Part shown: piece by piece, positions 25,945 through 28,814 of the stretch
Numbering within the stretch: the first letter of the stretch is position 1
How the letters are laid out: the number at the start of each line of letters is the position of its first letter
From: a virus
Taxonomy: Duplodnaviria > Caudoviricetes
DNA length: 32,418 nt
Virus record (IMG/VR): IMGVR_UViG_3300017754_001847
Coordinates: 1-32,418 of that record
Reading direction: 5' to 3' (one strand)
Program-made: the position numbers and the translations under genes
Notes under the pieces: generated by a model
The model's database searches: none
Seen by the model: the letters and a program-made list of their open reading frames with translations, nothing else
Told to the model about the DNA's origin: nothing

Positions 25945-26395
25945 TTTTCGCCAAGTCTTCGTCAGACAACAAAGCAGCGCTTACCTGAAGCGGCCCACCA
26001 TCTGCGCCAGTCAGCTCCACCGCCTTGAAGTCGCCGTACTTCTTCGGTCGGAGCTTCCCAGCCATCCATTTGCGAGCATCAATGCGCAACTGGGATCTGC
26101 GAATGTTGTCGCCATTCAGCATCCATCCAGCATCATCCTTGCCATTCGCTTCCATCCAGTCATTCTTGGAATTGTCGGCAATTGACAACACATCGTCGAA
26201 CAGAGCATCTGCCTGGACCTCCCGCGCGCGCGTGTATTGGTCACGGAACTGCTCAAACTGCCCCAGCCACCGGAAAACAGTTGCCTTCCTTGGCATGTTG
26301 TCCTCGGAGCAAATCGAGCGCAGGCTTTCCCCGTCTGCCAATCTCTCGCAGATTTCGTCGGCTACCTCTTGCGTAAACTCTGATTGACGCGGCAT
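25922..26395 (-). CDS. terS: Terminase small subunit (Sf6-like)
   Basis: ICERLADGESLRSIC, VFRWL, RSQLRIDARKWMAGKLRPKKYGD. Confidence 0.92.
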   Translation of the reverse strand: MPRQSEFTQEVADEICERLADGESLRSICSEDNMPRKATVFRWLGQFEQFRDQYTRAREVQADALFDDVLSIADNSKNDWMEANGKDDAGWMLNGDNIRRSQLRIDARKWMAGKLRPKKYGDFKAVELTGADGGPLQVSAALLSDEDLAKIASRAKS

Positions 26396-26419
26396 GCTCT
26401 TATGTTAGCACACGCAAAC

Positions 26420-26451
26420 CAAAAAGAAAAGCCACCTGTTACAGTGGCTTA
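26420..26451 (-). terminator. Rho-independent terminator downstream of the tRNA and upstream of terS
   Basis: AAGCCAC-TGTAACAG-GTGGCTT-TTCTTTTT on the minus strand. Confidence 0.75.
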
Positions 26452-26485
26452 AGGTCTTGTTTGACCATGGAGAAACTTGATTTTG

Positions 26486-26562
26486 TGGTCCGCCGTGCAG
26501 GAGTCGAACCCACATCAGTCTGACTAGAATTCAGAGGCATTATCCAGTTATGCTAACGGCGG
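26486..26562 (-). tRNA. tRNA-Arg(UCU), 77 nt, CCA encoded
   Basis: CCGCCGT/ACGGCGG acceptor, GCAT-AACTGGATA-ATGC D arm, TCTGA-ATTCTAG-TCAGA anticodon arm, GTGGG-TTCGACT-CCTGC T arm, ACCA end. Confidence 0.92.
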
Positions 26563-26568
26563 ATTGGT

Positions 26569-26739
26569 TTAGCTCCAAATCCTCCTCCACCACGGTCTAG
26601 GGAATGCTTCTTCCCATGCCTGTTGCGGCGTTAAGCCGATCCCCAATGAATACCAAAAACCTTCCACATCAGGTTTTGACAATACATACCAAAACCCATC
26701 TATTTTGATGATTCTCGGTACAGCTTTTCCACTCTTCAT
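26569..26739 (-). CDS. Small hypothetical protein (56 aa)
   Basis: ACAGGAG RBS before ATG at 26739; IGLTPQQAWEE motif. Confidence 0.7.
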   Translation of the reverse strand: MKSGKAVPRIIKIDGFWYVLSKPDVEGFWYSLGIGLTPQQAWEEAFPRPWWRRIWS

Positions 26740-26761
26740 GCCTTGCTCCTGTGTTATTGGG

Positions 26762-26929
26762 TGGGGTGGCCGGTCTGTTACCTCCGGCCCGGTTTCACGT
26801 AGCGACGGGCTGCATTTCACCGTACATCTAGCAGCACTTCTTACACAATCCCCAGTCGCACCATTACAGTGCGTTACGGCGGGTTTGCCTAGCATCGTCG
26901 CTGCGGGTCAGCATCCCGCATTCACCCCA
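26762..26929 (-). ncRNA. Candidate structured RNA with tRNA-like closing stem, 5' arm and 3' arm
   Basis: TGGGGTG/CACCCCA closing helix; GCGGG-ATGCTGA-CCCGC 5' hairpin; GCCGG-AGGTAACAGA-CCGGC abutting the 3' strand. Confidence 0.6.
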
Positions 26930-27074
26930 TAAACTTGTTATGCACAAAATATCCCCATCGCGCCGCCATTAAATCTGCCCAATACCATTCATCGGGAAGT
27001 TTTCCTTCTACGCGCAGACGATAGTTTTTCTTTATCAAATGCTTTAGATACAAATGGAAAATGAGAAACTTCAT
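26922..27074 (-). CDS. Small hypothetical protein (50 aa, not in the ORF track)
   Basis: GAGG RBS; translation MKFLIFHLYLKHLIKKNYRLRVEGKLPDEWYWADLMAARWGYFVHNKFMG. Confidence 0.55.
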   Translation of the reverse strand: MKFLIFHLYLKHLIKKNYRLRVEGKLPDEWYWADLMAARWGYFVHNKFMG

Positions 27075-27094
27075 TGTTACCTCAGCTCTCTAAA

Positions 27095-27262
27095 ATCGAT
27101 GTAATGGGCTGGCTGGGCGCAACTCCAGCATTTACCAGCTTTTTCACCCGCCGCCTGCCGGTAACTCTTTCTGCCATGCGGTCCTTAATCGCATACTCGG
27201 GCGTGTCTTTAGCGGGTTTAATATTCCGCCTTGCTCTCCACGCCGCAGCCCATTACATCAAT
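27095..27262 (-). ncRNA. Candidate structured RNA closed by a perfect 14-bp helix
   Basis: GATGTAATGGGCTG (27098-27111) / CAGCCCATTACATC (27246-27259); internal GGCGTG..CACGCC arm; GCTGG-AGTTGCGC-CCAGC abutting the 3' strand. Confidence 0.7.
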
Positions 27263-27265
27263 CTC

Positions 27266-27382
27266 TAAGGCTCCGGCTTTGCACCGGATTGCATGCCTCG
27301 CGTCTATGTTCAGCCCGTTTGCCTGCATGTACCTACTAGGGCCTATCGGCGTAGAGTGCCGCACTGTTCTAAACAAACCTCA
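27266..27382 (-). ncRNA. Candidate structured RNA with a T-loop-like arm
   Basis: TGAGGT/GCCTTA closing stem; TCCGG-TGCAAAG-CCGGA (5 bp plus 7-nt loop) abutting the 3' strand. Confidence 0.45.
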
Positions 27383-27494
27383 TTACTAAAATCTCTGAAT
27401 TAGTTAGTTAGCTCTTACTTGCTCATGGCTATCTCCTTGAGATTTCCCGCTCGTTACGCTTTGGCGAGTTTGCGAAAACACCTAAAGAACCTCT

Positions 27495-27537
27495 ATTCTC
27501 TCCACTTCTAGGCTATCTGCAATAGGGGGTTACCCTA
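27495..27537 (-). promoter_or_regulatory. Operator/promoter copy D: TAGGGTAACCCCCTATTGCAG, -10 GAGAAT; drives the ncRNA/tRNA cluster
   Basis: Most palindromic copy of the repeated motif. Confidence 0.65.
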
Positions 27538-27759
27538 GTCTTTAGGCGGATCAATAAGGCGCATCCAATGCGTCAACCGCTCCACCTTGTTTCCGCAGAT
27601 TTCCGCATCCCTCCAGCACATTTTTCCGGTCGCATTTGGGTGATATGCAGCCCAAAAGATGCGGCGCGGCGAATACAAGTGCTTTAGGTCTGGATGCCAC
27701 AAACAGCCCATGATTGGAGTCCCATCCTTTGGCGCTGTTTCAATCGGCATCCATTCCAT
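27535..27759 (-). CDS. DUF551-like small phage protein
   Basis: WMPIETAPKDGTPI...THWMRL..PP. Confidence 0.8.
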   Translation of the reverse strand: MEWMPIETAPKDGTPIMGCLWHPDLKHLYSPRRIFWAAYHPNATGKMCWRDAEICGNKVERLTHWMRLIDPPKD

Positions 27760-27800
27760 TAATCGTCCCAGCCTTCCATTTCATTCTCCTGTATGTTGGT

Positions 27801-28032
27801 TGATGGCGGCCGCGTAGTCGCAACCCTACGTTTTCACGCTTGACCATCATGTATTTAAGCTAGGCATTAGCGGGCGTTACCCCTCCGTTGCTTTTCACCC
27901 TAGGGCCAGCCTAAATACATCATGACCATCATGGGGGCGGACTATTTTGCACCCGAATATCCTCTGGGCCTGGGTGCTTCCAGATTCCAGCCTCTCCCCT
28001 AAGGGTCTCTCGGAATAATCCGCCTTCATGAT
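27801..28032 (-). other. Three back-to-back long hairpins in an intergenic region
   Basis: Inverted arms at 27801-27806/27844-27849, 27849-27861/27908-27920 and 27928-27946/28014-28032. Confidence 0.65.
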
Positions 28033-28070
28033 AGCCCCCGCTACTCTCCCGGGGTGGTCACTTCCTCTAT

Positions 28071-28814
28071 TTAATCACACAAATAGAGCCATTGGACGCC
28101 TTTCGACCCCAGCTTAATCAGCGCCTGCACGCCAATTTCTGCGGCCATGGACAGGATGCTGTTTCGCTTTTCAGCATCAGCAGCAGCATAAGCAGCAGCA
28201 TAAGCAGCAGCAGCAGCAGCAGCAGCAGCATAAGCAGCATCATCAGCAGCAGCATAAGCAGCAGCAGCAGCATAAGCAGCATCATCAGCAGCAGCATAAG
28301 CAGCATCATCAGCAGCATAAGCAGCATCATCAGCAGCATAAGCAGCAGCAGCGCGCGCCGCTCTTGCCACCGCAACCACTTGGCTAAATTCAGTCAGCGC
28401 CTCGCACGCGACGGATGCCGCCTCAAGCGCCACCTTATGCGCCGGGATGACTTCTCCAGCAGCGCGCAAAGCGACCGGCAGAATCTGCCTTGCAGTCTGC
28501 AAAACTACTTCTTTTGCAAATTCCTGCTGGTCGATCGTATCGCTCCCGAGTTGCGCTACCGCAACACGGCGCATGCCTTTTGCCCTGGCCGCATTGTCGG
28601 ACCAGCGCGAGTCGTTCAGCCGGATTTTGAAGCTGCGGACGGCAGACCCAACACAGCTAGGCTCGTCGCCGTGAGGCATGCCCATGGCGTAACAAACTGC
28701 CGCCTCAACACACATTTGTCCGGGGATGGGCTCACCCAATCCACTCGAAAGCCCGCAATCAACCGTCTCAACGACCTTTTGCGCGATTTCTTTGGTGATT
28801 TCAACTTTTTGCAT
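28071..28814 (-). CDS. Hypothetical protein with an internal Ala/Asp/Tyr repeat tract
   Basis: AACAGGAG RBS; MCVEAAV...HGDEPSCV...IRLND motif. Confidence 0.8.
   Translation of the reverse strand: MQKVEITKEIAQKVVETVDCGLSSGLGEPIPGQMCVEAAVCYAMGMPHGDEPSCVGSAVRSFKIRLNDSRWSDNAARAKGMRRVAVAQLGSDTIDQQEFAKEVVLQTARQILPVALRAAGEVIPAHKVALEAASVACEALTEFSQVVAVARAARAAAAYAADDAAYAADDAAYAAADDAAYAAAAAYAAADDAAYAAAAAAAAAYAAAYAAADAEKRNSILSMAAEIGVQALIKLGSKGVQWLYLCD
28172..28352. repeat. Imperfect trinucleotide-based tandem repeat (GCA/TCA/ATA units)
   Basis: Repeats of CATAAGCAGCATCATCAGCAG and (GCA)n, encoding AAYAADD units. Confidence 0.9.

Follow-up and report, generated by a model that had tools for sequence, protein, structure and literature searches.

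The minus strand of a phage contig encodes two real tRNA-shaped RNA frames that have no anticodon and that belong to two uncatalogued, recurrent phage families, referred to here as families A and B. The contig (IMG/VR record IMGVR_UViG_3300017754_001847) was analysed over its whole length of 32,418 nucleotides, hereafter called the window. Its two frames, E2 (27262-27095) and E3 (26929-26758 including a CCA, 26929-26762 without it), had been described in a first-pass annotation together with a third element, E1 (27266..27382), as an array of tRNA-like scaffolds of unrelated sequence, each with a closing helix, variable cargo and a 5-bp hairpin. The three elements and their 5-bp hairpins were all found in the sequence at these minus-strand positions. 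The description as scaffolds with variable cargo was supported for E2 and E3, with covarying frames, interiors swapped between close relatives and 142 insert clusters in family A, but not for E1. Likewise, the closing helices of E2 (14 perfect pairs within 17 bp) and E3 (7 bp) were retained and that of E1 was not. Within the window the sequences are unrelated; outside it, both E2 and E3 have many relatives, each in a large family of its own.

The cassette lies directly upstream of terS

PHROG matches identified the gene set of the window, a linear record that is about 83% complete, as that of a P22-like podovirus. They also placed the cassette between nin-like small genes and terS/terL, directly upstream of terS (26395-25922, minus strand, phrog_1482). 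The neighbouring features reported by the first-pass annotation, all on the minus strand, were recovered. ARAGORN and Rfam called a tRNA-Arg (TCT) with the 3' end ACCA at 26486..26562 (RF00005, 49.7 bits). This was the sole tRNA call in the window with either method, E1-E3 forming no cloverleaf, and apart from it no meaningful Rfam score was obtained in 26380-28100. A terminator scan located an intrinsic terminator ahead of terS at about 26450-26420 (called 26450-26429). The first of two small ORFs in the ORF list, of 56 aa (26569..26739), has no PHROG or Pfam family; it is missing together with the tRNA from the contig of one relative, and a search for relatives based on it returned two weak, uninformative loci. 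The second, of 50 aa (26922..27074), had two matches in a protein search (86% and 56% identical). Its stop codon lies inside the 5' acceptor strand of E3 (26922-26929), where translation could hinder folding of the frame. Because of this overlap, a cut before 26929 would leave the mRNA of the 50-aa ORF without a stop codon.

At the upstream side, a 74-aa DUF551 ORF (27535..27759, minus strand; Pfam PF04448, 24 bits against a cut-off of 22) is left out of the contig of one relative. A probable minus-strand promoter (TTGCAG, 16 nt, GAGAAT; 27522-27495) was read from the sequence. The first-pass annotation had listed it as copy D of a repeated promoter. The stretch is conserved in relatives, where it is joined to E1 or E2, but it is weak by consensus, was not called in a consensus scan, and no second copy was found within the window. 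A ribosome-binding site followed by a three-codon minigene was seen immediately upstream of E1 (27437-27415), and an ORF of 247 aa (28071-28814) without PHROG or Pfam family contains a long alanine/aspartate/tyrosine repeat tract. When the whole region was compared with named phages, matches were mostly to the tRNA and the DUF551 ORF, and the cassette was absent from the 66 loci of relatives identified by their terminase. A strict scaffold rule applied to 26450-28070 returned two units, E2 and E3, against a mean of 0.15 in shuffled sequences (1/100 shuffles reached two); this rule undercounts, since neither E1 nor the real tRNA satisfies it, and nor do most of the T4 and T5 RNAs considered below.

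E3 is a divergent member of family A

Family A frames consist of a 7-bp acceptor, a hairpin with a GCTGA loop, a variable insert and a 5-bp arm with TCAGC in its loop. E3 was found to have an acceptor of seven Watson-Crick pairs followed by C-CCA, a hairpin (26919-26903), a 114-nt insert and a T-like arm (26788-26769) of 5 bp with CAG in its loop. This loop has 10 nt and is not a canonical T-loop. The central three of the five loop-loop pairs between GCTGA and TCAGC are kept in E3. A family A model built without the window (R1) gave E3 a score of 32.9 bits (E 4e-7), the next best score being 13.1. Folding of E3 alone was marginal (z -1.9; 9/200 shuffles as good). The probability of its acceptor helix was 0.34-1.0 in isolation and 0.12-0.36 in the whole transcript, where it is a minority fold among competing folds.

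For this family, 172 distinct copies of 76-230 nt were gathered, including copies in P1, HK620 and the Qin prophage of E. coli K-12. Species genomes contained it at 116 positions, and of the 80 listed almost all were in Proteobacteria; 1403/5426 E. coli genomes were matched by pieces of the P1 array. HK620, P1, a lambdoid E. coli phage, Magnus and ZC03 all carry family A copies that have no RNA annotation. In the Qin prophage, an equally unannotated variant lies between dicF and dicB (L442, 2457-2584; 25.7 bits); it has a 21-bp closing helix and its 3' end is located about 25 nt ahead of dicB. A tRNA on the same strand was present in 11/67 family A loci and none was found on the opposite strand. 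Exact patterns made from the 3' parts of E3 and of E0, an upstream element described below, matched nothing in viral contigs.

Alignment of 16 family A copies supported the proposed structure. Over 22 proposed pairs, 97.7% of 352 cells were paired, a value reached by 0/500 shuffles, and 9/22 pairs had changed on both sides; the members of the families were picked by patterns drawn up after E2 and E3 had been seen, so these pair counts lean towards structure. Two tests are free of this selection bias. One of them used a pattern for the 5' part of family A only: a 3' module was found within 270 nt in 94 of the 112 distinct hits in species genomes, compared to 7.9 in shuffles. The other, a sense/antisense comparison, is given with the leader hairpin below. 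Frame loops are much more conserved than the inserts. The loop-loop helix is nearly invariant, and its covariation is therefore thin: no two-sided change occurred in the 16-sequence alignment, and 67 copies contained three apparent compensations and at least one break.

The acceptor is followed by N-CCA in 19/167 family A copies (37 with the 8-bp register) versus 3/167 at a control offset; an encoded CCA is missing in 130/167 copies in either register. The alanine G3-U70 pair was found in 0/167 copies. Alanine charging of family A RNAs thus appears unlikely and, considering also the non-canonical loops of E2 and E3, charging and EF-Tu binding are doubtful on sequence grounds.

Two further observations were made in family A arrays. 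The arrays of HK620 (L197, ~1285-1318), Magnus (L200, ~1255-1290) and P1 (L325, ~944-977) contain a short reading upstream, which we take to resemble the tmRNA tag. The tRNA cluster of ZC03 (L201, ~565-600) displays hammerhead-like core motifs by eye, which were not called in an Rfam search at the gathering threshold.

E2 represents family B, with a long closing helix

E2 is closed by a helix of 17 bp, made of 14 perfect pairs, one G-U and two further pairs. Inside it are a D-like arm (27244-27200), a variable interior and a T-like arm (27129-27112) that is stacked on the closing helix without a spacer. None of 200 shuffles folded as well (z -4.7), and pair probabilities were 0.86-1.0 in the whole predicted transcript. 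As in E3, the T-like loop is not a canonical T-loop; it has 8 nt. Family B frames have a closing helix of 12-17 bp, often a tRNA-like D arm, and an 8-nt T-like loop. All the features used to delimit the family (a helix of at least 12 bp, a GCGT/ACGC D-like stem and a 5-bp arm with an 8-nt loop) were present in E2. The model R2, built without the window, describes the 3' module of family B only, the whole-length alignment being too poor; it gave E2 a score of 26.1 bits (E 6e-5), with a next best score of 10.4.

Each of the 12 pairs of the family B closing helix took more than one pair type across 14 rows, one of which is probably a chance match, and 3/5 pairs of the T-stem showed two-sided changes in 15 sequences. 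Covariation in homologues, proposed earlier as a check on the array, was therefore found as compensatory changes in both families. E2 shares 16 nt with the array locus L069. The D-like arms of family B look by eye like the D arms of class II tRNAs. Six other arrays (L103, L114, L125, L143, L179 and L187) contain units with canonical tRNA T-loops, tRNA-like D arms and a large insert, which could link tRNA genes to family B as intermediates. Within the interior of E2 (~27175-27135), for which no insert homologue was found, there is an internal loop with two purine-rich strands; these may resemble the RNase P double T-loop, which contacts the elbow of tRNA.

The array extends upstream to a conserved leader hairpin

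The array reaches upstream to 28060, beyond the three elements originally flagged. At its head is a minus-strand leader hairpin (28029..28060) common to loci L069-L072, L074 and L075 (L073, being the contig of the window itself, was excluded from every count). A shorter variant was found in 121 loci (L076-L196), and about 570 viral stretches are estimated to carry it. The leader hairpin (28060-28029) had no Rfam match. Loose ends in relatives carry a sigma-70-like promoter just upstream of it, and the hairpin also led to three unrelated contigs of phages whose non-coding arrays span 0.7-1.4 kb. Where leader-hairpin loci had a tRNA call, the tRNA was on the same strand (19/19), often at 23-45 nt from the start of the hairpin. 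The sense/antisense test used 110 loci, dereplicated from 127 and chosen by the leader hairpin alone: frames with a helix of at least 11 bp occurred 16 times in sense and once in antisense orientation, never in shuffles and once in 198 kb of controls.

Two units were detected between the leader and the DUF551 ORF, both on the minus strand. A long-stem unit (27925..28034; z -2.9, 0/100 shuffles) matches L115 at 23/24 nt, with a stem C-G changed to T-A in L115; its 3' strand is possibly also the 5' strand of the next unit. That unit, E0 (27797..27931), has a 7-bp closing helix followed by ACCA. It can be drawn in a short form (27849-27797; z -3.1) or a long form from 27931 (z -4.5), with 0/100 shuffles as good for each. 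E0 was not matched by the family B model R2; pieces spanning 27851-27797 are kept in the contigs of runs X2 and X5.

In such junctions one strand serves twice, as the 3' strand of a long helix upstream and as the 5' acceptor strand of the next frame. Since one strand is shared by two helices, the two folds are mutually exclusive until one is cut. Shared strands were seen in the window, where an 11-nt junction occurs twice (27933-27923 and 27851-27841), and in L115, L125, L159, L194, L197 and L198. They were found in 14/55 genome copies versus 1.8% in controls, and in 8/43 viral copies versus 4%.

Modules are exchanged between relatives and E1 is an optional insert

Close relatives of the cassette were DNA contigs from 7 public runs. 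The 45.8-kb contig of one relative (run X10) keeps E3 with one difference over 184 nt, and the 50-aa ORF ahead of it is replaced by 102 other letters. Both ends of E2 are kept in the same contig, its 104-nt interior being replaced by 84 other letters, and the promoter is joined straight to 27269, leaving no E1. In the contig of another relative, the promoter is joined to 27365. The cassette is thus a string of exchangeable modules. Run X12, the RNA nature of which is only guessed, covers the DUF551 ORF, E0 and the tRNA, and none of E1-E3; this coverage counts neither for nor against their expression. A putative minimal E3 in run X2 was rejected as not established, resting on 30 loose letters.

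E1 is such an optional insert. In both relatives with a fused promoter its proposed 5' strand (27382-27377) is absent. The proposed 6-bp helix contains two G-U pairs and had a probability of 0.13-0.24 in isolation and 0.0 in the transcript; 57/200 shuffles folded as well as E1 (z -0.5). The only real motif inside it is a 5-bp hairpin with a 7-nt T-loop-like loop (27272..27288, minus strand; pair probability 0.6-1.0). Similar hairpins occur in 6 other array loci.

The inserts vary far more than the frames. Those of the 172 family A copies fell into 142 clusters, 122 of them single. One divergent cluster had 7/12 insert pairs changed on both sides and a second had 11; three small clusters of near-identical inserts contained no compensatory change. 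Short inserts barely fold better than shuffles (median z -0.55; 5/54 below -2), and no significant folding was obtained for the inserts of E2 and E3 (z -1.4 and -0.6).

The general architecture is known from T4 and T5

The general architecture of these elements is already known from T4 rnaC and T5 RNA1/RNA2; families A and B are uncatalogued. In the T4 and T5 records, stable RNAs are annotated in between the tRNA genes (rnaC and rnaD, the species 1 and 2 RNAs, in T4; RNA1, RNA2 and RNA3 in T5), two of the T5 RNAs being annotated as 'tRNA-like stable RNA with unknown functions'. They are likewise phage RNAs, of 73-144 nt, beside tRNA genes. T4 rnaC and T5 RNA1 and RNA2 resemble E2 and E3 in their paired ends, the T arm by the 3' strand and the large interior in place of an anticodon arm, and E2 and E3 showed the whole T4/T5-type arrangement, including a co-located phage tRNA. 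The T4 and T5 RNAs differ in having canonical TTCRA T-loops, whereas E2 and E3 have the loops described above. In 680 records the T4 pair is conserved intact; among family A inserts, by contrast, most bear no relation to each other. R1 and R2 had no match in the T4 and T5 regions (L322 and L323), and none of the best 40 of 49 records showed a T4 or T5 match over E1-E3.

tmRNA also combines an acceptor and a T arm with a large insert in place of the anticodon arm. It was excluded on the basis that E1-E3 had no ARAGORN or Rfam call, no G3-U70 pair and no visible tag frame. Rfam gave no match for E0-E3 or for family A and B copies; a strong match to a characterised family, which the first-pass annotation had named as removing novelty, was thus not seen. 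A match to Betaproteobacteria-1 in L079 was discarded because the structure differs.

Y RNAs (YrlA) have a tRNA-like domain without anticodon and occur in some phages (PMC4201824). YrlA/YrlB were excluded, as the topology differs and the contig had 0 TROVE matches (the control was positive in 2/14 genomes). C4 of P1 and P7 and CI of P4 are small phage RNAs cut from a precursor by RNase P at the closing helix (PMC11143913, PMC5499578); they have no equivalent of the T-loop, unlike the E2 and E3 frames with their T-like arms. Up to E 10, the C4 and CI models of Rfam matched nowhere in 26380-28100. DicF is cut from a polycistronic prophage leader by RNase E and RNase III (PMC5069750), with a family A copy directly behind it. 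It differs in that it has no tRNA-like frame and is an antisense RNA of 53-72 nt that depends on Hfq, and the neighbouring Qin frame is unannotated. A literature search, with most subscription papers including the original T4 and T5 work outside its scope, found no description of families A or B. In PMC10690425, four of the six supplementary files contained no family motif; the families may be among the 10,006 unnamed candidates of that study.

Frames as proposed handles for a structured cargo

We hold, with about even confidence, that the frames are processing and stability handles and that the swappable structured cargo acts in trans, probably on proteins. The insert is likely the working part of the excised RNA, and its most plausible mode of action is to bind a protein of the host or the phage; that it acts in trans is what we infer. 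A single transcript would start at the promoter (27522-27495) and end at the terminator, and host RNase III and RNase P would likely release the frames from it as stable small RNAs carrying the folded insert. RNase III would cleave in the 17-bp helix of E2, and E3 would be cut by RNase P before 26929 and then trimmed to the encoded CCA. In family A, the GCTGA-TCAGC loop-loop pairing may replace the normal elbow formed by the D- and T-loops.

The frames have features used by host processing enzymes, namely a 7-bp acceptor with enriched N-CCA and long helices. RNase P is reported to cut the phage C4, CI and M3 RNAs, all without a T loop (PMC5499578, PMC11143913); a review states that RNase P requires a T-loop or a similar loop (PMC4919913). 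The 3' end of the 72-nt form of DicF is attributed to RNase III (PMC5069750). Counted from the annotated start, this end is at position 2454, inside the 21-bp closing helix of the Qin copy, a placement by length arithmetic and not by the original mapping. This lends indirect published support to the cutting of such helices in vivo.

The main rival is that the frames are cis-acting cut marks, like the t-elements of plant mitochondria: they would split a polycistronic message so that the mRNA downstream carries a protective fold at its 5' end, and the insert would be secondary. This fits the window, where E0, E2 and E3 each have a ribosome-binding site and a small ORF within about 40 nt downstream, and it agrees with the short distance between the Qin copy and dicB and with the enrichment of shared strands over controls. 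It does not fit the family. A ribosome-binding site and ORF within 45 nt was found in just 6/66 family A copies, with 7/66 at 135-180 nt, and the median distance was 191 nt. Inserts that covary on their own, and ORFs that are swapped in relatives while the frames stay, also argue against cut marks, and we consider this explanation unlikely.

Alternatively, the frame itself could be the effector, an anticodon-less mimic of the tRNA elbow and acceptor that soaks up tRNA-binding proteins such as tRNA-cutting defence nucleases. The conservation of the frame loops relative to the inserts and the frequent position of copies among tRNA genes are in its favour. Anticodon nucleases, however, recognise the anticodon loop, which is absent here, and the loops of E2 and E3 are not canonical T-loops. 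Long covarying inserts would moreover be needless for such a mimic, which makes this reading improbable.

Slightly less credible still is that the inserts are antisense guides for phage or host mRNAs, as in P1 C4, P4 CI and DicF, a role that the first-pass annotation had put forward. The high diversity of the inserts would suit guides; family A adjoins dicF in K-12 and in P1 sits in a leader annotated with a dicF-like region, and the E3 insert has a 14-of-15 complement within the upstream DUF551 ORF. Against the phage's own genome, however, complementarity was at chance level: the observed score was reached by 12/60, 48/60 and 20/60 shuffles for E1, E2 and E3, respectively; the contig in which C4/CI-type target boxes would lie is about 83% complete. 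The Magnus insert matched its own locus only among 50,697 phage records, and covarying inserts conserve stems, not sequence.

That the elements are decayed tRNA genes or functionless chance hairpins agrees with the closing helix of E1 and with the tRNA resemblance of the family B D-like arms, but it is very improbable given the covariation, which appears largely to refute it for E2 and E3, the spread over hundreds of phages and an E3 that is nearly unchanged while the neighbouring ORF is replaced.

Implications

With the frames read as handles for a cargo acting in trans, a broader proposal can be made, which we advance only tentatively. Phages of Proteobacteria may share an RNA display system, in which a few standard frames present more than one hundred swapped, unrelated RNA domains that are released by host nucleases. 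Recombination at the conserved ends of the frames would exchange the inserts, and in one frame a kissing-loop elbow would stand in for the D/T contact. If true, the arrays would correspond, at the RNA level, to accessory-gene hotspots and would hold a large unread stock of RNA effectors, for example anti-defence decoys.

The tRNA-like stable RNAs of T4 and T5 are still annotated without function, and families A and B show that their design is widespread and modular. The presence of family A in P1, HK620 and the Qin prophage of K-12 makes processing and function directly testable. Candidate RNA effectors of phages are thereby listed in the 142 insert clusters, and for the expression of stable RNAs in bacteria the frame may be a natural scaffold.
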